64,000 bases of DNA from the NCBI GenBank assembly GCA_013239625.1, contig MU053873.1:1316524-1380523 (forward strand), written 5' to 3'. This document shows positions 3,768 to 56,469 of this stretch, piece after piece. The DNA is from Lama guanicoe. Taxonomy: Eukaryota. Made by a program: the position numbers and the translations under genes. Under the pieces are notes generated by a model. That model made no database searches. It had not been told where the DNA came from and saw nothing but the letters and a program-made list of their open reading frames with translations. Each line of letters opens with the position of its first letter. Position 1 is the stretch's first letter.

Positions 3768-3819
3768 TTTTTTTTTTTTTTTTTTTTTTTATTTTTTTGT
3801 GTTTTTTTTTTTTTTTTTT
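3768..3819. repeat. Interrupted poly(T) tract at the edge of an L1 remnant
   Basis: About 50 nt of T with few interruptions. Confidence 0.9.
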
Positions 3820-4806
3820 GCTGTTGAGTTGTGTGAGTTCTTTATATGTTTTGGATACTACCTCCTTATCAGATAAATATTTTCTCCCATTTGATAGGTT
3901 GCCTTTTCATTTTGTTGATGGTTTCCTTTGTTGTATAGAGCTTTTTAGTGTGATGTTAGTGTGATGTAGTCTCCCCTGTTTATTTTTGCTTTTGTTGCCT
4001 TTGTGGTGTTAAATCCAAAAACTCACCAAGACTAATGTCAAGGAGCTTACTGCCTATGTTTTTTCTCTAGGAGTTTTATGGCTTCAGGTCTTACATTCAA
4101 GCCTTTAATCCATTTTGAGGTGATTTTTTGTGTTTGATGTAATATAGTCGTCCAGTTTTATTCTTTGGCATGTGGTTGTCCAGTTTTCCCAGCACCATTT
4201 ATTGTCCTTTCCCTGTTGTATATTCTTGACTCCCTTGTCATAAGTTAATTCACCATATATGTGTGAGTTTATTTCTGACTCTATTCTGTTCCATTGATCT
4301 ATCTGTGTGTTTTTATGCCAGTATCTACTGTTTTGATGACTATAATTTTGTAATATACTTTGAAATCAGGAAGTGAGATGCCTCCAGCTTTCTTCTTCCA
4401 TAAGATTGCTTTGGCTATTTGAAGTCTTTTGTGGTTCAATACAACTTTTAAGATTGTTCTGTTTCTGTTCTATTCTGGAAAATGCCATTGGAATTTGATA
4501 GGGATTGTATTGAATCTGTAAAATATTTTGGGTAGTATGTACATTTTAATACAATACAATATTAGTTCTTCCACTCTATGAGCATGGAATATCTTTCCAT
4601 TTATTTATGTCTTCATTTTTATTTTTTCATTTTCTTAATGGTCTTCTGGAGAGAAACATATATTAAATTTATGTTTAATGTTTTTTGAATATTGTAAATG
4701 ATATTGTTTAAATTTTTAAAAAATCTCATTTTTGCTATTATAAAAAGTTACTAATATAAGAAATACAGTTGACTTTTGTCTATTGACTTTCTATCTTGTG
4801 ACCTTT
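3820..4806 (-). mobile_element. Old LINE-1 ORF2 remnant (possibly two pieces), left of a nested younger L1
   Basis: Antisense ORF2-type text (e.g. TTTAATCCATTTTGAG, TTTGAAATCAGGAAGTGAGATGCCTCCAGCTTT); resumes after the TSD at 6327. Confidence 0.8.
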
Positions 4807-4985
4807 TTAGATTCACTTATTTTTTTTAATTGAGTTATGGTCAATTTACAATGTGTCAATTTCTGGTGTACAGCACAACTCTTTAGTCATACATGAATAT
4901 ACATATATTAGTTTTCATTTTCTTTTTCACTATGAGCTACTGCAAGATATTAAATATATTTCCCTGTGCTATACAGTATAAACTT

Positions 4986-5117
4986 TTTTTTTTTGCAGGG
5001 GGGCCAGATAATTAGGTTTATTTATTTGTTTATTTTTAGAGGAGGTACCAAGGATTGAACCTGGGACCTCGTGCATGCTAAGCATGTGCTCTACCACTTG
5101 AGCTATACCCTACCCCT
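4986..5117 (-). mobile_element. tRNA-derived SINE (vic-1-like) nested in L1 3' UTR
   Basis: Minus strand reads GGGTATAGCTCAAGTGGTAGAGCACATGCTTAGCATGCACGAGGTCCCAGGTTCAATCC (A and B boxes) plus A-tail; TSD CAGT(A/G)TAAACTT at 4974-4985 and 5118-5129. Confidence 0.9.
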
Positions 5118-5274
5118 CAGTGTAAACTTGTTTATCTATTTTATATATACCTGTCAGTATCTGCAAATCTCAAACTCCCAGTTTATCCCTTCCCACCCCT
5201 CCTCCTCTCTGGTAACCACAAGTCTGTATTCTATGTCTGTGAGTCTGTTTCTGTTTTATATATAAGTTCATTTT

Positions 5275-5346
5275 TCTGTCTTGTCTTGTATTGTCTGTCT
5301 TTCTTTCTTTCTTTCTTTCTTTCCTTCTTTCCTTCTTTCCTTCTTT
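5275..5346. repeat. Compound (TCTTG)/(CTTT)/(CCTT) microsatellite
   Basis: Seen directly; lies at the L1 ORF2 stop position. Confidence 0.9.
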
Positions 5347-6326
5347 TCCACATATGAGTGATATCATATGGTATTTTTCTTTCTCATTCTGGCTTACTTC
5401 ACTTAGAATGACATTCGCCAGGGACATCCATGTTGCTGCAAATGGCATTATTTTATCATTTTTTTATGGCTGAGTATTATTCTATTGTATAAATATACCA
5501 CAATTTTTTTATCCAGTCATCTGTCGATGGACATTTAGGTTGTTTCCATGTCTTGGCTATTGTAAATAGTGCTGCTATAAACATTGGGGTGCAGGTGTCT
5601 TTTTGAATTAAGATTCCTTCTGGATATATGCCCATGAGTGGGATTGCTGGGTCATATGGTAAATCTATTTTTAGTCTTTTGAGGAATCTCTACACTGTCT
5701 TCCACAACGTCTGCACCAAGCAACATTCCCACCAATAGTGAAGAAGGGTTCCCTTTTCTCCACACCCTCTCCAGCATTTATCATTTGTGGACTTTTGAAT
5801 GATGGCAGTTCTGACTGGTGTAAGATGATACCTCACTGTAGTTTTGATTTGCATTTCTGTGATAATTAGTGATATTGAGCATTTTTTCATGTGTCTATTG
5901 GTCATTTGTATGTCTTCATTGGAGAATTACTTGTTTAGGTCTTCTGCCCATTTTTGGATTGTATTGTTTGTTTTTTTCTTATTAAGTCATATGAGCTGTT
6001 TATATACTCTGGAAATCAAGCCCTTGTCAGTTTCATCTTTTGCAAATATTTTCTCCCATTCCGTAGGATGTTGTTTGGTTTGCTTATGGTTTCCTTTGCT
6101 GTGCGAAAGCTTGTAAGTTTATTTAGGTCCCATTTGTTTATTTTCCTTTTATTTCTGTTCAAATTGCCCTAGGAGAACTTTGCTGAGATATATGTGAGAT
6201 AATGTTTTGCCTAGGTTTTCTTCTAGGAGATTTGTAGTGTCTTGTCTTATGTTTAAGTCTTTAATCCATTTTGAGTTTATTTTTGTGTATGGTGTGAGGA
6301 AGTATTCTAACTTAGATTCACTTATT

Positions 6327-9699: not shown

Positions 9700-10500
9700 G
9701 GTTTATGGTATGCATCCTTGAGATCTGCTGGTACCAATTTATGTAAAAGGTAAGAACCTCCCAACAGTGTAGTTCTGTTTATCACTTCCCTATCCTTTGT
9801 GATATTGTTGTCATATATGTTGCACCATACACTATGAACCCCATAATATAGTGTTTTAATTTTTGCTGTAAACAGTCATGTGTTGATTGGAGGAGGCTTA
9901 AGGACGCATTATAATTACATGCAAAGTGTGATGCTAGATTGTATTGTGGAACAAAATATGGTCTATAATTTAGTTAATAGTATTGCACCAGTGTTAATTT
10001 CCTGATTTTGATAATTGCACTATTGTTACATAAAATGTTTAGTGGGTTTTGGGTAAAGGGTATACAGGAAATCTCAGTACTAGTTTTGCAACATTTCTGT
10101 AAGTCTAAAATAATTTCAAAGTATAAAGATTAAAAAAAAAAACTATTGTAATCAGCCATGTGTCCTTTAAGAAATTGAGAAGAGATTTTTTTTTTGTATT
10201 AACTCACAAGTATATCATTTCTTGTGCCCTTCCTTCTTTCCCAGAGATCTCAGTTTTCATCTTGTATCAATTCCCTTCAGTTTAAAAAACCTCCTTTAGA
10301 ATTTTCATAGGGAAGGATTGTAGATGATAAATTCTCTCAGTTTTTGTTTTTCTGAAAGTAGCTTTATTTTACCTTATTTTTTGAAGAAGTTTTTCACTGG
10401 ATATAGAATTCTAGATGGATAGTTTTTTTCCCCCCAACAATTAAAGATATTCCATTGTCTTCTGGCCTCATTATTTCTTGTATAAAATCTTCCCTATTTC
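9700..10500 (-). mobile_element. Ancient L1M fragments, with a plus-strand L1 3' piece at about 9890-10142
   Basis: AATTCTCTCAGTTTTTGTTTTTCTGAAA...TTCACTGGATATAGAATTCTAG is antisense ORF1-end text; the inner piece ends in an A-tail. Confidence 0.6.
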
Positions 10501-10780: not shown

Positions 10781-11382
10781 TTATTCCACCCCTCTCCCCT
10801 TCTCCCTTGGTAACCATAGGTTTGTTTTCTGTGTTTGGGAATCTGTTTCTGTTTTGTAAATAAGTTCATTTGTATCATTTTTTTTTAGATTCCACAAATA
10901 AATGATATGATATGGTATTTTCTTTCTCTTTCTGTCTTACTTTACTTAGTAATCTCCAGTTCCATCCATGTTGATGTAAATGGCATTATTTCATTCTTTT
11001 TTTACACAGTGTAGTGTTCCATTGTATATATATACCACAACTTCTTTATCCAGTCATCTGGCAGTGCACATTTGGGTTGCTTCCATGTCTTGGCTATTGT
11101 AAATAGTGCTGCTATGAACACTGGGGTGCATGTATCTTTTCGAATTAGAGTTAACTCCAGATACATGCCCAGGAGCAGGATTCTGGATTATATGGTAAGT
11201 CTATTTTTAGCTTTTTAAGAAATCTTCATACTGTTTTCCATAGTGGCTGCACCAAACTACATTTCCACCAATAGTGTAGGAGGGTTCCCTTTTCTCCACA
11301 CCCTCTCCAGCATTTATCATTTGTGGACTTTTGAATGATGGCCATTCTGACTGGTGTGAGGTGATACCTCATTGTAGTTTTG
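10781..11382 (-). mobile_element. LINE-1 ORF2 C-terminus / 3' UTR fragment, related to 4822-6311
   Basis: Near-identical to 5180-5845 (e.g. TTCCATGTCTTGGCTATTGTAAATAGTGCTGCTAT); no A-tail or TSD seen. Confidence 0.9.
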
Positions 11383-17902: not shown

Positions 17903-18110
17903 GTTTTTTTTCTGTCTAGTTTTGTTTGTTTTTGTTTTAACATTTTTTATTGATTTATAATCATTTTACAATGTTGTGTCAAATTCCAGTGTAGAGCACA
18001 ATTCCTCAGCTATACATGAACATACATATATCCATCGTCACATTCCTTTCTCTGTGAGCTACCACAAGATCCTGTATATTTTTCCCTGTGCTACACAGCA
18101 TAATCTTGTT
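17903..18110 (-). mobile_element. Short 5'-truncated lineage-specific LINE-1 3' end with 13-bp TSD
   Basis: Aligns to 39960-40133; TSD TAAGAAGGTAAAG at 17890-17902 and 18111-18123; T-rich tail on the left. Confidence 0.92.
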
Positions 18111-20029
18111 TAAGAAGGTAAAGTTTTTATATGAATTACTCCAGACTTTGAAGATGGAGATTTATAAGATATGTATATGAGACACTAGTTTGTCAAAGAT
18201 TTTATGTAATTGCAAAACACTTTCAAAGATTTCAGCTCATTTGGTCCTTTCAACTTTATGAGGATAAGCATTATTATCTTCTTCAATTTTCTAACTAAGA
18301 GTTGAGCTTGAAAAGACTATGACTTGTCCTCTGTGTTTCACGTGTTGCTTTTGAATAGAATGAAATCTCAAATCCATATCATAGAACGGCAAATCAGGTA
18401 TTTTTCCCCACATGCGTCCGTTTGGAATTCTAGAAACTGGTTCCAGTGTAAATCAATTTGTCTTACTGCCTAATACAATTCTATTAAACTGTAAAGTACC
18501 TTTACCTATAGAGTAGTGTATAATTTATAGATATACTCAAAGGATACATTTTCCCTTTTTCTCTCTCTTTAATTTGTTCTAAGTAGAACATAAGTTCACA
18601 AATAGTTTGTGTTTTGCTTTAGCTGTTAACGCTTAAAAGTGACAAATTTTATTTCTATCTTGTCTGTTTTTCTACTAGTTTTTCAACTAGTTCAGTAAAA
18701 TGACCAAAGCAAAATTGAAATGCTGAAATAGAAATAAGACCCTTGAATAAACTGTAGATAGAAGAGGTGTTTTCCTCTATTCCTGACAGACTCAGATTAT
18801 TGTGGGGTTCCTGGGTCTGATTATTAAAATATTTTAGGCACCTCCTTTGTCAGTTGCCACTTATGCCAATATCAGTGGCTTACTTCTTGTTATACTGCTC
18901 TCTTCTCTTTCTAATTGACAATTTTTGATCTGCTATTGCTCAGAAAGCTAGATAACCCAGGGTGTTAATATTGTCTTTAAAAATAAGAATACCATTTTAG
19001 GACTTAAGAGGGTAGCTGGAGTAGCTTTTCTCTCTTATACATAATGAAATTGAGGTCCAGAGAAGTCACGTGCTTTGCCAGTTAACACAGGACAACAAAA
19101 ACTAAGTCTTCTATCCTGTGGTCTATAGTATGGTCTTCAGTTGTTTCACCATTTTTATTTTTTAGGGCCTGAATGAGGGTCTGGAAGACTAATGAATAAG
19201 GCACATCGTTCTTGAATATTTAGAGACCTTTTTACTTCCTTCCTTACTGATAGATGATTTCTGCCAGACGTGCTATTCAACATAAGTTTGGTGTGTTTGT
19301 GTTATACTTACTTAATCTTGTATACTAATTCTCAAAAACTTAAATTTGTCTCTTGTGGTCGTAAAACAGGTATCTGTTAACATAAATAAACCAGTTAATA
19401 TCTCAGTTTATTGAAACCCATGGAGCTGAAACCCTATAGCAGTCTTCATTTTCATGAGTCTGAAATTTCCATGCTGAAGCCAGAAAAAGCCACTAAAAGG
19501 GAAAAGTGGGGCTTTAATAATAAATAAAATAGAGCAAGTCTTAGCAAACATTAAAAAAAAAGCTAATTGGAAGAAACTCTTTAGCCACTTATTTACACTA
19601 GAGTGTTTTAATATTGAAGATCCATCAATTTTTCCCTTTGGGAAGGCAGTTTTATATCCTGGTTTTAGAGGGCTGTTTTCCTCAAACACTGGATGACAAA
19701 TGGAATGACAGAATTTTAGATATGAAATGTATCAGGGAGTCTGGGCAATACTGGAGGGTGAGGAGTAGTTTGCTTAGTAATTTAAATTACATGTATTTTA
19801 ACTAAGTAGTTAGTGTGTATTTTTGATGTTAGTTAACAAACTTATCTTTACTTTTGGCTATCAAAGAATGCTGGAAGATTTCTTCTTTTATCCTGTTTAC
19901 TTTCATATTATGGAAACTATAGCTTTAGTCCCAGTCTTCTCTGCTAACTAGTACTTAGAGAATTGAGCTTTACACATTTATAGTTAATCTCTTTAAATTT
20001 GGTCAGGTTCATATAGAGGAAAACTGGAA

Positions 20030-29412: not shown

Positions 29413-29555
29413 GGGGAAGGTATAGCTCAGGGGTAGAGTGTGTGCTGAGCATGTACAAGGTCCAAGGTTCAGTCCCCAGTGCCTCCATTAAAAATAAATA
29501 AATAACCTAATTACCCCCCCAACACAAAATAATAAATGAATAAATAAAATCAGGG
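29413..29555 (+). mobile_element. tRNA-derived SINE (vic-1-like)
   Basis: GGGGAAGGTATAGCTCAGGGGTAGAG...GGTTCAGTCCCC...AAATAACCTAATTACCCCCCC; degenerate TSD TAAATnnnnTCATTATA at 29396-29412 and 29556-29572. Confidence 0.9.
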
Positions 29556-29674: not shown

Positions 29675-29840
29675 GGGGGGAGGGTATAGCTCAGTGGTAG
29701 AGCACATGCTTAGTTAGCATGCATGAGGTCATGGGCTCAATCCCCAGGACCTCCATTAAAAAATAAAGAAATAAACTGAATTACCCCCCCAAAAACCCCC
29801 TAAAAACCAAAAAGTAAAAAGAAAAAAAAAGGAAAAAAGA
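29675..29840 (+). mobile_element. tRNA-derived SINE (vic-1-like)
   Basis: GGGGGGAGGGTATAGCTCAGTGGTAGAGCACATGCTTAGTTAGCATGCATGAGGTCATGGGCTCAATCCCC plus A-rich tail. Confidence 0.9.
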
Positions 29841-39794: not shown

Positions 39795-39950
39795 ACATTT
39801 ACTAAGGAAAGAGCCAGGTACTTTATATATATGATATTTAAAATCACAATCATCTTTAATCTCACAACAATCCTGCAGTGCTAGTGTATCCTTCATTTTG
39901 TATATTTGTGAAAATTGATAGTTGAGAGATTCAATAAATGATGCAAAGAC
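39795..39950 (-). mobile_element. MIR SINE, left half (continues at about 43061-43130 beyond the L1 insertion)
   Basis: TTTAATCTCACAACAATCCTG...GAAAATTGA...GAGAGATTCAATAAATG then, after the L1, AGAGTTAGAATTTAAACCCAG. Confidence 0.65.
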
Positions 39951-40233
39951 TTTTTTTTACATTTTTTATTGAGTAATAGTCATTTTACAATGTTGTGTCA
40001 AATTCTCGTGTAGAGCACAATTTTTCAGTTATACATGGACGTACATATTTTCATTGTCAAATTTTTTTTTCTGCTGTGAGCTACCACAAGATCTTGTATA
40101 TATTTCTCTGTGCTATACAGTATAATCTTGTTTATCTATTCTGCGTTTTAAAATCCCAGTCTGTCCCTTCCCACCCCATGCCTCCTTGGCAACCACTAGT
40201 TTGTATTCTATGTCTATGAGTCTGTTTCCGTTT

Positions 40234-40286
40234 TGTATGTATGTATGTATGTATGTATGTATGTATGTATGTATGTATGTATGTAT
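40234..40286. repeat. (TGTA)n microsatellite, about 13 units
   Basis: Perfect tetranucleotide run just after the L1 ORF2 stop. Confidence 0.95.
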
Positions 40287-40655
40287 TTAGATTCCACATG
40301 TGAGCAATCTCATATGGTATTTTTCTTTCTCTTTCTGGCTTACTTCACTTAGAGTGACATTTTCCAGAAACATCCATGTTGCTGCAAATGGCATTATGTT
40401 GTCGGTTTCTGTGGCTGAATAGTATTCCATTGTACGAATATACCACATCTTCTTTATCCAGTCATCTGTTGATGGACATTTAGGCTGTTTCCATGTCTTG
40501 GCTATTGTAAATAGTGCTGCTATGAACATTGGAGTGCAGGTGTCATTTTGAAGTAGGGTTGCTTCTGGATATATGCCCAGGAGTGGGATTCCTGGGTCAC
40601 ATGGTAAGTTTATTCCTAGTCTTTTGAGGAATCTCCATACTGTTTTCCACAGTGG
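40287..40655 (-). pseudogene. L1 ORF2 C-terminal remnant (last 122 residues)
   Basis: Open frame PLWKTVWRFLKRLGINLPCDPGIPLLGIYP...MFIAALFTIAKTWKQPKCPSTDDWIKKMWY...CGI*; no EN, RT or CCHC upstream. Confidence 0.9.
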
Positions 40656-40797
40656 CTTTCCTTGCTTCCCTCTCCCACTCTTAATGATTTAGATGTCTTC
40701 TTTTGCAATTTTGTGTTTACTCTTTTTGTAATTCATGGCAGTTATCACCTTTCCAGTTATGAGTTTCTCATTTTTGTAGCATCCTGCTTCTTTCTTT

Positions 40798-41701
40798 TTA
40801 GAGTAGACCTGTCAGTATTTCTTTTAGCATGGGTTTAGTGTTGCTAAACTCTTTTAGTTTTTGCTTGTCTGTGAAGTTCTTTATCTCTCCTTCTATTCTA
40901 AAGGATAGCCTTGCTGGATAGAGTATCCTAGGCTGCATCTTGTTTTCATTCAGGACTTTGAATATATCTTGCCACTCCCTTCTGGACTGTAGTGTTTGTG
41001 TAGAGAAATCAGCTGAGAGCCTTATGGGGGCTCCCTTGTAACTCACTCTTTGTTTTTCTCTTGCTGCCTTTAGGATCATTTCTTTATCCTTGACTCTGGC
41101 CATCTTGATTATATCATGATATGTCTTGGTGTGGGTCTGTTTGGGTTCTTCCTGTTTGGGACCCTCTGAGCCTCCTGTACTTGGATATCTGATTCCTTTA
41201 GGTTTGGGAAGTTTTCAGTCATGATTTCTTCTGATACCTTTTCAATCCGCTTTATTCTTTCTTCCCCTTCTGGAACCCCTACTATGCATAGATTGGCATG
41301 CTTTATATTACCCCATAGGCCCCTTATATTGTTTTCATTGTTTGTTATTTGTTTTTCTCTCAGCTGTTCTGATTGGGTGCTTTCTGTTGTCCTGTCTTGT
41401 AGGTCACTTATTTGTTCCTCTGCATTATCTAGCCTGCTTTGTACAGCCTTTAAGTCAGCTCTCATCTCAGCAAATGAGTTTACTAATTCTACTTGGTTCT
41501 TCTTTATAGTTCTATTTCATTTTTGACATATTTTATATCTCTAAACACTATTTCTTTTAGTTCCTTCAGTACTTTGATCACTCCTTTTTTGAAATCTTGA
41601 TCTAGTAGGCCATCAATGTCTATTTCCTTGATCGTGCTTTCAGGGGATTTCTCTTGATGTTTTAATTGGGAGTGGTTCCTCTGCTTCTTCATATTGCTCA
41701 T
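40798..41701 (-). pseudogene. L1 ORF1p, full length with two frameshifts
   Basis: ORFs 41504-41701, 41109-41465 and 40798-41103 give coiled coil (RLDNAEEQISDL), RRM (NLCIVGVPEGEE, ENFPNL) and CTD (IRLSADFS, ILYPARLSF). Confidence 0.92.
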
Positions 41702-43048
41702 ATCTCTCTGGCACTGTGGCTTAAGGAGTATCAGTTATCTAGTTCTCCTGGAGACGGTGTGCTCTTAATGATTTTATGCTCTTAATTATTGAGAGGTCTT
41801 TGTGTCTTCGCCCTGTTTTGTGAACTCAGCTTGCTGTTTCCAGAGGCTCTCTGTTGGCGTCGTCTTCTGTGCTGCTCCCAGTGGCTGTCGGCTAGCAGAT
41901 CGTGCCCCCTCCCAACACTGCAGGTGCTGAGCTCTTATCCAGTGGGCGGGCAGGTCACTCCCCCTCCCAATGACGCAGTTAGATGCTGTGCTCTGGGGAG
42001 GCAGGTGGGCGGATCATGCCCCCTCCCAGCACCGTGGTCAGGTGCTGTGTTCCTGCCAGGAAGGTGGGTGGCCGCCTGCCCTCTCCTGGCGCCGGTCACT
42101 GTGCTGCTCTGTGCAGCTGCCCTCTCTGTCTTGGGTTGGCACTCCGTAGGCAGGCTCGGGGAAGACTATGGAACAGCCCTGCCCCTGCTCTGTGCCAAAT
42201 CTCAGCTCCTTGTTTATCTTGGTGGCGCGAGTTCTCTGAGGTGCCAGGGCAGAAAGATCGTATCTGCCTCAGGCTGTAAACAAGTCTCAGTCCTGCCTAG
42301 GAGGTTGCGGAGCCCCCAGGTGCAGGTTCAGGTCTTGGCCCCATCCCCACCTGGGCGCTTGTTACAGGAGGATATGGCGGCTGTGGCTGCGCCCTAACTT
42401 TCTTCTCACGAGAAGTGCCAGTAATGGTGTCGCAAGTCTGAGGAGACAAAGGCTACGATGCCCTTCCCCCCAGGGCACACCAGCCGTGTTGCTTTGCTTT
42501 TTTCGCAATTTATGGGGAACCGAGGTTGTTCTGCTGTGTATTGCCTCCCAGCCACGTTGTGCATCACCCTACAGTCCCCCGGGGCTGCCTCAGTGCAGCC
42601 ACCCCAGTCCTCTACTTGGCTCCGGCAGCCTTTCCTGGCCCCAGCTGCTGGCTCGCGTCTCAGGCTGGGTGTCACGGGGACCCTTTGTGCCCATTTAACT
42701 TAGTTCTGTCAGTTAAGGGGTGCTCGGGGCAGATCTGAGCCTTGGAGGCTCCCCCTCCATCCCACCAGCCTCTCCCTTGGAGAGGGGGACCCAGCAAATG
42801 AGTGCTAGTCCTCCTTTGCCACTCCCTCCCCACAGGATCAGTCCCACACTGTTTTGCTTTTTCTTCTTTCTTCTTTCCTTTTCTCCTACCAGATTTTTGA
42901 GGTCTTGGTCTTTTGAAGAGGGCGATGTTCTGTCGGAGTTTGGCAGGTGCTCTGGTTGGCTGAGTAGGTCTGTAGATGTGAGTTTTGGTGTATTTGTGGG
43001 AGAGGGTGCGCTACAAGCATCCTTCTACTCTGCCATCTTGCTTAAGTC
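41702..43048 (-). promoter_or_regulatory. L1 5' UTR internal promoter with YY1 motif
   Basis: Only GC/CpG-rich segment in the window; CAAGATGGC (YY1-type) on the minus strand at 43032-43040, 8 nt from the element start. Confidence 0.75.
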
Positions 43049-45974
43049 TGGTGCAAAGACATTTAATTAGGAAATGAAAGAGTTAGAATTTAAACCCAGT
43101 TTTGAAGGATTTGAAAGGCTTTGCTCTGTCCAGCATGGCCTCCCATGAAGAGTAGACTCTTCTTGCTGTTTATCTTATTTGGTTTTGCTGTGTTTTTATA
43201 CCATTTGTATTGGCACTTTGTTATTTCAGCAAAGGAAGCTATTGAAAAATATACATAAAAAGTTGATTAGTTGTAATTTCTTGTAAGATTTGAGAGATCC
43301 CCCTCCCTTCCCCAGCAGTCTGCAAGTGGTTAAACTTGATCATACACTAATGAAGAATTACAGAGTTATTTGTTTGACTTTGCCACTTGGGACACTTGGC
43401 AAATGAGACAATTCATCTCAGTGTGCAGCTAGTCTCATTTCTTAAAGAAAATTAATTAATGCAGTTTGTCTTCCTCCCATATCTCTGATTATGGTCCTTT
43501 TATTATACCTTCACTTTCCTGCTTTACTTTTCTTCCCTGGAAATATCAGTTTTTCCAAGGCATCTTTCTTTCTTTCAACCTAAGTAAAAGCAATTTTCCT
43601 CAGTAGGAGTGTGTATTTGTAATTTTAGTACACTTTAGGCAAGACAAAGACATTTGTGCAATATCCCATAGGAAAATTCCATAGTAAAGAATTTCAAAAG
43701 CATCAACCTCTCTTTTAAAGTGATGTAATAATTTTCTTGTATACTTGTCTTTAATATTCTTTGTCTTTTTCTTTTTGGCAGAGGTGGGTTAGTATTATAT
43801 GTATCTTACCCCAGTTGTCTTCCAGTACAACAGCTCATTACTTAAATGTATTAACAACATAATTTTGCTTTTAATACCTTTACATTTTAAAAATAACAAT
43901 ACCTTTGATTTTAGAACCATATTTTAGTGGTTTTTGAAGCACAAGGACTGGTTTTCTATAATTTTAACAGTTACAATAAAAAATGTAATTTCTTTGCAGG
44001 AAATGGCTTGGAGTAGTTTCTTACTCAGTCTCTTTGAATATATTTTTTTTCTCTATTTTCACCGTGTGGACTTCTCATTTTAAAGGTAGAATGATGACAT
44101 GCTCATTTTGCTTCTCTTTTGATATTCATCTGAAAAAGTCAGATTTCAGAAAATCTGGCTTTTAAATCACTTTTAACATTTTTTATACCCCACGGACCCA
44201 GCAAGGAATCAGTTTGGAAAAAAAAAAAAGATTGTTATCACTAATCTCCCATATCAATGTTGTATAATTTTTTTTTTTAATCATGCTGGTCAGAACGTGG
44301 AGAATTGGCATGAATGTATTTAAAGCCAACCAGATTAGAAAAGATATGGGAAAGAAATTGTGCAAGTGAAGTTAATTAAGAATTAAGCAAATGCCTCATA
44401 TTAAAGATAGCAGTTTGTAGTTTTATATTAAAATTAAGTAAAGGCAATATAGAAGTCACTGTTATAGATTATTCTGGTTTTCAGATAATTTTATGATATA
44501 TATAGTATATTGACTTCCATTTAACTGAAAATGAAATGTAATGAAATGGCTTGATTCAGTCATGATATGATATCAGTTTAACAATGGATACCAGTTTAAC
44601 AATTTTATTTTTCCTAAGATTTGGTAGTCTTTTCTAATTTTCTCATCAAATGAGGTTTTAGGATTATTGGATCATTTCATTCACTTACCTTTTTAAAAAT
44701 GTTGATTCTATGTAGATTACAGAAATACTGTTCCATTATTTGCTCCTGTGATAGCTGATATCTGGCAGTTGAAGGAATGGTAACCTTTAAAATGAAATAA
44801 CCTTGTCATAATATTGTGGCAGAAAACTGACAGGATAGTAAAAATATACTGGACTTGGAGGAGCATTCTAGGGGGAGCAGTTTACAGATATTTTTATTAG
44901 GGAGATTTACAGATGTTATGCTATTCTGTGTACTTAGTGTCAAGCTGAGGAGACAGATCAGACACATAAATCATGTTTGAGGATTCTAAGATAACCCAGA
45001 AAATCTTCAGATTTCTGAGAACAGCTGTAGGGTTTGTCTGCTATTCTTTTCTCTTTACCTTTTACTTACTTATTCCTCTTACTATATACTTTCGTTGAAT
45101 TATTTCATTGCAAATCTATATAATTGTGCCATTTCAGGTTCTTTCTGGGTTGGAGTATGGAGGGTTTTCCTTTCTGGCCTCAGTCTATCATGAGGTTAAA
45201 TCCATGGAAAGGATCTTCGGTACAGGGAAGAGACTAATTGTAGAATTAGACCTAGGGCATGAGTATAGGAAACAGTTTTGAGGTTGTTTACTCTCTAGAC
45301 TTCCAGGGAGGGATCAGAGGAACTCCAAGTATTAAAAATGACAAACCATGGGGTTTACCTGTTCCTACGAATAAATTTGATGTTCTGAAGTGCTAGAATC
45401 ATAAAGCTTCTAATAAAACTTTGGGGGTGATGGGTAATGACTGTAGCAGACTTTCTGAAGAGCAAAGACAAAAAGATATTGTTTATCAGTCTTTACAAAG
45501 TTGAAGTATATATCATGAACAAAATATAACCTCATATTAACTTTCCACCAGTCCTGTTGTGAAGTAGTATATGTCATGTTACTTTTTGTATGTTAATTAA
45601 ACATTTCAGATTTTTTTATACTTCTTCAGTACTCTGTTGAATTTCATATTGGATCATATACTTAATAGTAAGCTGTAAACCCAGTTTCTCCCTCCAGTGA
45701 TTATTAATTAATTTTATGTTGTACAGTTTTTTCATTGCTCAAAGATCCTTCTGGCATTGCTCTGATCTCGTAGCAGAGAAAACTATTCTGGAAGGTTACC
45801 CTGTTGTAATACCAAGTAATAATTATGTCACCACTATGACCTAAATAAACTTTTGGCTTGCTTAAGTTTAGAAAATCCTCAACTTCTCTGAAAAGTCATG
45901 AATTCAAACAGATATAATGGCAAGGTTTTTCTTACAATCTTCAGTTAGCTGTTGCTAACATTTGTCTTGAGGAG

Positions 45975-55385: not shown

Positions 55386-56469
55386 TAAACAAATACTCTG
55401 GCTTTTGTGTAGAAGAATTGATTGTAATGAGGCAAAAGAGGAACTGACTTCATTCAAAGCGGAATTTGTTACAACTATTGAAGGAAAAAATTAGTTCATG
55501 CCTTTTACTTGGAAGGGGACACAGTATTTAACAGGAGTGGACAGGCTTGGCAATCCATTCTGTACTGTGTGTTTCTTGGGTTAGTGATTCCCTATTCATA
55601 CTTCAGCGTGTATGTCCAGATTTACATTAAATGGGCATTTAGAAACTTGGAAACAATTTAAAGAATTAATTTATAGCATTAATTCTTAATTTGTTAACTC
55701 AGTGTCTGACTGGCATCTCCTTAATTACAGCATTTATGTTATCACTTGGAATATAAATAAGAATAAACCTTTATTGATGGATTGATTAACTAAGCCTGAT
55801 TCTTCACATGTGTAAGAGCCAGCCCCCTCAAAGTAGTATTTTACTATGCAGTTTAAGCCCCCTCCCCACTCCCTTTCTTGTCTTATCTCTGCTCTGTAGA
55901 GAGATTTGTTGTGAAAGGATTTCCCTTTATCATCATTTGGGGAATCTGTTTCTTACCTTTTTGGATCTTCTTTCCCCTGGATCCCACATCTTCATCTTTT
56001 TTGGTTTATTCTCTCATTTTGGTAGAGCATGCTCTTCAGTACCTTCCTAAGAAAGGGAGCACGAAAGATATATTTTACTCTCACAATTAATTTAATTCTA
56101 GTTTAGAAATTATTTTCCCTCAGAATTCTTAAGGAATTGATTCTTTGCTGTCTAGTTTTCATTGTTGCAACTAAGAAGTCCAGTACTGTTCTGATTCCAG
56201 ACTCTTTGTATGAAAACTGTTTTCTTCTTTCCCCTCTCTCTTTAGAAGCTTTTAAGATCTTTTCTTTATCCCTAGCATTCTGCAGTTTCACAAGAAAATG
56301 TCTTAATATGGATCTGTTTTGTTTCTTTGTGTTCAGGTAAATTTTTACAGAACTTACAGACATATAGTTTGACAGTTTACCTCTTTCTACTTTTTTCTAT
56401 TTTCTCTTTGTAGAATTTCTGTTACTAGGATTTTGAACCTCATGGACCTGTTGTTTAATTTTTTTCTTA

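Follow-up and report, generated by a model that had tools for sequence, protein, structure and literature searches.

Sloth, hyrax and armadillo carry HAL1s (half-L1s). HAL1 families in general are mentioned in PMC5753468, PMC13756887 and PMC4161310, which cite Smit 1999 and Bao and Jurka 2010. A different kind of shortened L1 is known from human, where the SpIREs, which make use of a donor in the 5'UTR and have kept ORF2, constitute around 2% of the full-length insertions (Larson et al. 2018, PMC5860796), and spliced L1 RNAs that retain ORF2 have been described as well (PMC2896524). Finally, internal deletion or template switching is given as a leftover class among the human- and chimpanzee-specific insertions (PMC2912911), and PMC11702581 describes how the primary RT end can switch templates.

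The 64-kb stretch of DNA that was analyzed here (the window) contains a camelid L1 derivative of 3,094 bp on the minus strand (43048..39955), which is composed, from 5' to 3', of a 5'UTR, ORF1, a spacer of 142 nt, the last 122 codons and the stop of ORF2, and a 3'UTR. An earlier note on this DNA had proposed the same bounds (39955..43048), with both untranslated regions, and these were confirmed. We conclude that the element is a real, internally deleted and dead camelid L1, and that every likely explanation of its structure represents an already known kind of event. The 5'UTR (41702..43048, minus strand) measures 1,347 bp, with a GC content of 57% and a decayed CpG complement (observed/expected 0.35). 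The YY1 motif that had been reported corresponds to a YY1-like sequence, CAAGATGGCA, which lies within it at 43040-43031. No Rfam match was obtained in 41200-43600 and no tandem array in 41600-43100. The 3'UTR (39955..40286, minus strand) measures 332 bp and contains a (TACA)n repeat (~40285-40232), an AATAAA sequence (39970-39965) and a short A run.

Both flanks carry the target-site duplication (TSD) of 16 bp with two mismatches that had been claimed: the 5' copy (43049..43064, minus strand; 43064-43049 in the sense of the element) pairs with the 3' copy (39939..39954, minus strand; 39954-39939), and a 9-bp core at 43060-43052 is exact. An exact shared 9-mer is found in 0.3% of random 30x30-nt window pairs. 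The 5' copy is preceded by TT, which results in a TT/AAAT site that resembles the L1 endonuclease consensus (taken from PMC5860796). As for the A-tail that had been noted, an A run is present, but it is made up of just eight A's, four of which are located inside the TSD. The hallmarks of target-primed reverse transcription (TSD and A tail) are present in the element. Of the words sampled from 40300-43600, a fraction of 0.58-0.66 was recovered in 24 sequencing runs (10 studies, 7 organism labels), a figure in which orthologues and paralogues are not separable and to which we give no weight.

The same features bear on the question whether the element could be an artefact of the assembly, in which a 5' and a 3' part of the same full-length L1 were joined and the repetitive middle was dropped. 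The interiors of L1s are hard to assemble, which would make such an error conceivable. Nevertheless, the window is without an N anywhere, the two sides of the junction share one or two letters, which is too few for an overlap join, and the TSDs match at both ends of the element. A misassembly is accordingly the explanation that we consider the most improbable of all.

Several other L1 remains were encountered in the window. At 4807-6326 (minus strand) lies a 5'-truncated camelid L1 with around 950 nt of ORF2 and a 3'UTR, bordered by a 15-bp duplication (6326-6312 / 4821-4807); it adjoins older L1 ORF2 sequence (3794-4369), and its 3'UTR is split by a SINE-like insert at ~5116-4990. A short repeat occurs three times, with 77-81% likeness (5009-5116, 29413-29522 and 29676-29792, the latter two close together), and is presumably a tRNA-derived SINE. 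Another L1 copy, at 17932-18112 (minus strand), is reduced to the terminal 180 nt of the 3'UTR; it is 85% identical to the element and is bordered on either side by a 13-nt direct repeat. In two L1 copies on the minus strand, different microsatellites have grown at the same A-rich spot just past the ORF2 stop, (TACA)n at 40285-40232 and (GAAA)n at 5350-5290. Around 40145 (minus strand) the 3'UTR of the element misses some 22 nt relative to the copy at 5170-5145, which represents either a private deletion or a subfamily difference.

ORF1 (40798..41701, minus strand; Pfam PF02994 and PF17490) had been put forward as full-length. This is correct for its span, which is complete, but not for its reading frame. 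The stretch 41701-40798 matches the intact relative P0122 (300 aa) in three frames, with residues 1-64, 65-198 and 195-300, respectively, which means that there are two frameshifts (near 41505 and 41115) and that ORF1 is non-coding. The separate pieces show 80-89% identity to P0122 and 84-92% to P0121. Elsewhere in the window, at 56094-56333 and 10308-10493 (minus strand), remnants of the C-termini of much older L1 ORF1s are found, with 35-40% identity to P0122. In addition, the dromedary model P0149 (XP_064339253.1), annotated as 'cylicin-1, partial', contains, at its C-terminus, L1 ORF1 pieces and antisense pieces of an L1 5'UTR (compared with window 41815-42973); the L1 pieces in this model are probably an annotation artefact.

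Downstream of ORF1 the element has retained the inter-ORF spacer for its first 142 nt (40656..40797, minus strand), in line with the ~140 nt that had been estimated, although the terminal AG also fits the ORF2 parent and is thus ambiguous. The independent copy P0194 (41 aa) supports most of the 142 nt as L1 spacer, since the two translations are the same at 27 of 35 residues. A second spacer match (P0195, 35% identity, a repetitive protein of 1,641 aa) was taken as chance. The reading frame of the spacer meets the junction at a codon boundary and contains one stop in 48 codons. An in-frame fusion of the spacer to the ORF2 tail was considered and rejected: P0194, the sole close relative found, ends at the identical position, and therefore the spacer stop is not private to the element and no fusion frame is to be expected. 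There is no in-frame ATG between this stop and the junction, and the search for a fusion product delivered no candidate.

Outside the window, the metagenome contigs yielded two loci from 501 pattern matches (L001 and L002, 68% and 61% identical), neither of them camelid. Both are mammalian L1s, the inter-ORF spacers of which are only ~60 nt (L001:1200-1257 and L002:987-1044), versus more than 140 nt in camelids, and non-homologous to the spacer of the element. L002 carries a SINE-like insert inside ORF1 (~507-720). No parent or camelid L1 DNA was recovered from viral contigs, and plasmids and phages gave no match; the prokaryote genomes gave 1/96, a 22-residue match that was taken as chance. 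A crude splice-site scan of the window for host exons revealed no convincing exon.

The ORF2 remnant (40287..40655, minus strand) comprises 122 open codons followed by the normal stop, just as had been stated for the last 122 residues. Around nine tenths of ORF2 is missing, and the endonuclease and the reverse transcriptase are gone. The remnant is 89% identical to the dromedary L1 ORF2 gene model P0001, and its four best matches are all dromedary L1 ORF2 models (84-89%), the unnamed matches reaching 78% at most. The fact that the best matches of the ORF2 tail are dromedary models supports the camelid assignment. Compared to the majority of 19 dromedary ORF2-tail models, 11 of the 122 residues differ (9.0%), within the range of the models themselves (3.3-15.6%). 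Given that the remnant is open and that its divergence falls within the dromedary range, nothing indicates that it drifted for long within a master lineage that lacked ORF2. Moreover, four of the 11 rare residues are common to the dromedary model P0002, which has a normal ORF2 upstream of the break, and thus the close relatives of the element include ordinary L1s.

The jump from the spacer to the ORF2 tail is located at 40656/40655, as had been indicated, and reads GCAAGGAAAG/CCACTGTGG (GGAAAG/CCACTG around the break). The relative at 11240-11260 has the sequence that had been attributed to it, GTAGTTTGGTGCAG/CCACTATGG at the break. GGTGCAG precedes the break point in two relatives in the window; a third, older relative is gapped there. 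The earlier note let the break follow the CAG. This is one of several placements: the A and G at 40657-40656 equally make up the end of the parental CAG, so that the AG could derive from either side and the break might lie elsewhere than directly behind the CAG. The distinction is important: a parent spacer that continued with AG and GT would make the junction a splice, and an origin of the G or the AG from ORF2 would put the break within the CAG and make a splice impossible.

A splice would turn the element into a spliced L1 retrocopy comparable to the SpIREs, in which a donor within the spacer was connected to the CAG late in ORF2 and the RNA was inserted with the help of ORF2p in trans. The splice would have removed the ORF2 start, the endonuclease and the reverse transcriptase, and could have left one or several independent copies, none of them a source element. 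That spliced L1 RNAs are retrotransposed has been established in human (PMC5860796), and a second human donor is found at 290, with acceptors at 1837 and 1920 (PMC2896524). At the locus itself, the CAG is present at the junction in two of the three relatives in the window that span the site, and AAG is a possible reading of the end of the upstream piece. To put the placement of the junction in numbers, simulated joins of the retained spacer to the ORF2 3' ends of the two relatives were scored, 117,558 for one relative and 59,850 for the other. The downstream homology started exactly at the AG of a CAG in 2.8% and 2.6% of these, respectively; for a YAG the shares were 4.2% and 3.8%, and with every acceptor-compatible placement counted they were 12% and 11%. 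Considering that an exact acceptor placement is thus reached by chance in 3-4%, the position of the junction is a real but modest hint of splicing.

The putative splice sites themselves point in the other direction. By pyrimidine count, which is a crude measure and not a splice model, the CAG of the junction is a poor acceptor: only 8 and 7 pyrimidines are found in the 18 nt scored in the two relatives, and an equal or better score is reached by 20 of 28 YAG sites in one relative and by 12 of 13 in the other. Within the final 65 nt before the junction, gaa/GCAAGG (40665) resembles a donor the most, but the element retains this site, which has therefore not been used. Related artiodactyl L1 spacers are not known to have a GT donor at the break point, which has little weight and shifts the odds only slightly. 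Furthermore, the SpIREs described in PMC5860796 have a 5'UTR donor throughout, and an RNA without ORF2 has to be mobilised in trans, contrary to the cis preference of L1 (PMC5860796). All in all, we consider a spliced origin conceivable yet rather doubtful.

Alternatively, ORF2 could have been lost once, in the founder of a HAL1-like family specific to camelids. Such non-autonomous, ORF1-only elements would have preserved the promoter and ORF1 and would have spread to many copies by means of autonomous L1s. The anatomy of the element, with a whole 5'UTR, the ORF1 span, the 3' end and a TSD, suits such a family. In mammals, HAL1s have had several independent origins (PMC5753468), and the repeats of camelids are poorly curated, the RepeatMasker database being without camelid-specific repeats as of 2021 (PMC7830431). 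On the other hand, a second copy of the junction is absent from the window, which has several other L1 3' ends, and the ORF2 remnant is still open and not extra-diverged.

An excess of camelid ORF1-only copies is likewise absent from the published counts (PMC5203782). Table 6 in the supplement of that study, in which 'ORF1 only' means that ORF2 is not intact, in which assembly quality is a confounder and which is considered here for its mammal rows down to sheep, gives 677 ORF1-only versus 326 two-ORF L1 copies for dromedary, 494 versus 1 for wild camel and 519 versus 0 for alpaca. The corresponding numbers are 7,898 versus 4 in sloth, 2,926 versus 2 in hyrax and 3,636 versus 42 in armadillo, and 1,588 versus 191 in horse and 2,786 versus 424 in dog (PMC5203782). 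For wild camel and alpaca, the quality of the assemblies is probably behind the near-zero two-ORF counts. At the protein level, none of the best 120 of 8,000 proteins begins with spacer residues; as the spacer stop precludes a product that crosses the junction, this is no evidence on copy number. Among the papers searched, none was found to report an ORF2-deleted L1 family or a HAL1 of camelids. The main text of the camel transposon survey PMC8605555 is without HAL1 and ORF2, and PMC6726744 gives one 73-bp match to HAL1-3_ML in alpaca and shows the Repbase label L1-2_Vpa as a label only. These indirect signs lean against a large ORF1-only family, whereas they would miss one that numbers tens to a few hundred copies; a family origin of either size is in our view unlikely.

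Ranked first among the readings is a one-off, non-spliced internal deletion of a full-length camelid L1, which we consider probable, though by no means assured. The earlier note had itself mentioned a one-off deletion at AG microhomology as the alternative to its own proposal, and such a deletion, at a microhomology of 1-2 nt, fits all that was seen. A microhomology of at least 2 nt is expected in ~21% of random joins at such a composition. A point against a one-off deletion is that the homology begins exactly at the AG of the CAG, as in 2.6-2.8% of random joins.

For the internal deletion the following course of events can be envisaged. A full-length camelid L1 RNA was inserted by ordinary target-primed reverse transcription, as attested by the TSD, the endonuclease-like site, the A remnant and the presence of both ends. 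Its interior would have lost some 3.5 kb or more in one non-spliced event at 1-2 nt of microhomology; the missing part runs from midway through the inter-ORF spacer up to the final 122 codons of ORF2. An L1 ORF2 has around 1,275 codons, and the estimated size of the loss (~3.5 kb plus the remaining spacer) is based on that length. The loss may have resulted from end-joining repair in the genome after the insertion, or from the reverse transcriptase jumping forward on its template during the insertion, two routes that are indistinguishable here. The copy subsequently decayed, as is apparent from the two ORF1 frameshifts and the loss of CpG, and it probably founded no family.

As a one-off deletion, the element is one more dead L1, and its value is limited to that of a possible lineage marker. 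The implications would be different if the junction represented a splice common to many loci, since that would provide a concrete route to half-L1 families. In that scenario, a splice from the spacer to late ORF2 would have created an ORF1-only element that kept its promoter and was copied again, giving rise to a young, splice-born, HAL1-like family in which the ORF2 stump is still open. We consider this very unlikely. If true, the full promoter would allow renewed transcription and copying, unlike in human SpIREs, and the family would be a counter-example to the notion of spliced L1 copies as dead ends (PMC5860796).

When the element is set beside the known systems, it looks HAL1-like in anatomy: as in HAL1s, it is an L1 derivative with an ORF1 region and without a functional ORF2, the enzyme domains of which are absent. 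Yet HAL1s are multi-copy and encode ORF1p, whereas the element has one known copy, its own ORF1 contains two frameshifts and it still has an open ORF2 remnant of 122 codons. With the SpIREs it has in common that L1 structural hallmarks are present at the flanks of an internal loss, and that the 3' edge of this loss can be placed after an AG. The SpIREs connect a 5'UTR donor to acceptors in the 5'UTR or ORF1 and keep ORF2 (PMC5860796), while the element has kept the 5'UTR and ORF1, has lost ORF2 and joins the spacer to late ORF2. It thus falls outside the described SpIRE layout, though it may possibly work like a SpIRE. The camelid L1 lineage (e.g. KAB1262767.1 and KAB1283257.1) is represented by its four best matches in the ORF2 tail, and differs in that 17 of the 19 dromedary models have a normal ORF2 upstream of the break of the element, the other two beginning downstream and being uninformative. 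The internal deletions reported in 10.1101/2024.08.27.596794 accompany a 5' inversion and have a median of 14.5 bp, in contrast to the multi-kilobase loss without inversion seen here. With the L1s that were internally deleted by a deletion after insertion or by a template switch, the element has in common that both ends and the TSD are intact, that the interior is gone and that the junction shows a short microhomology.
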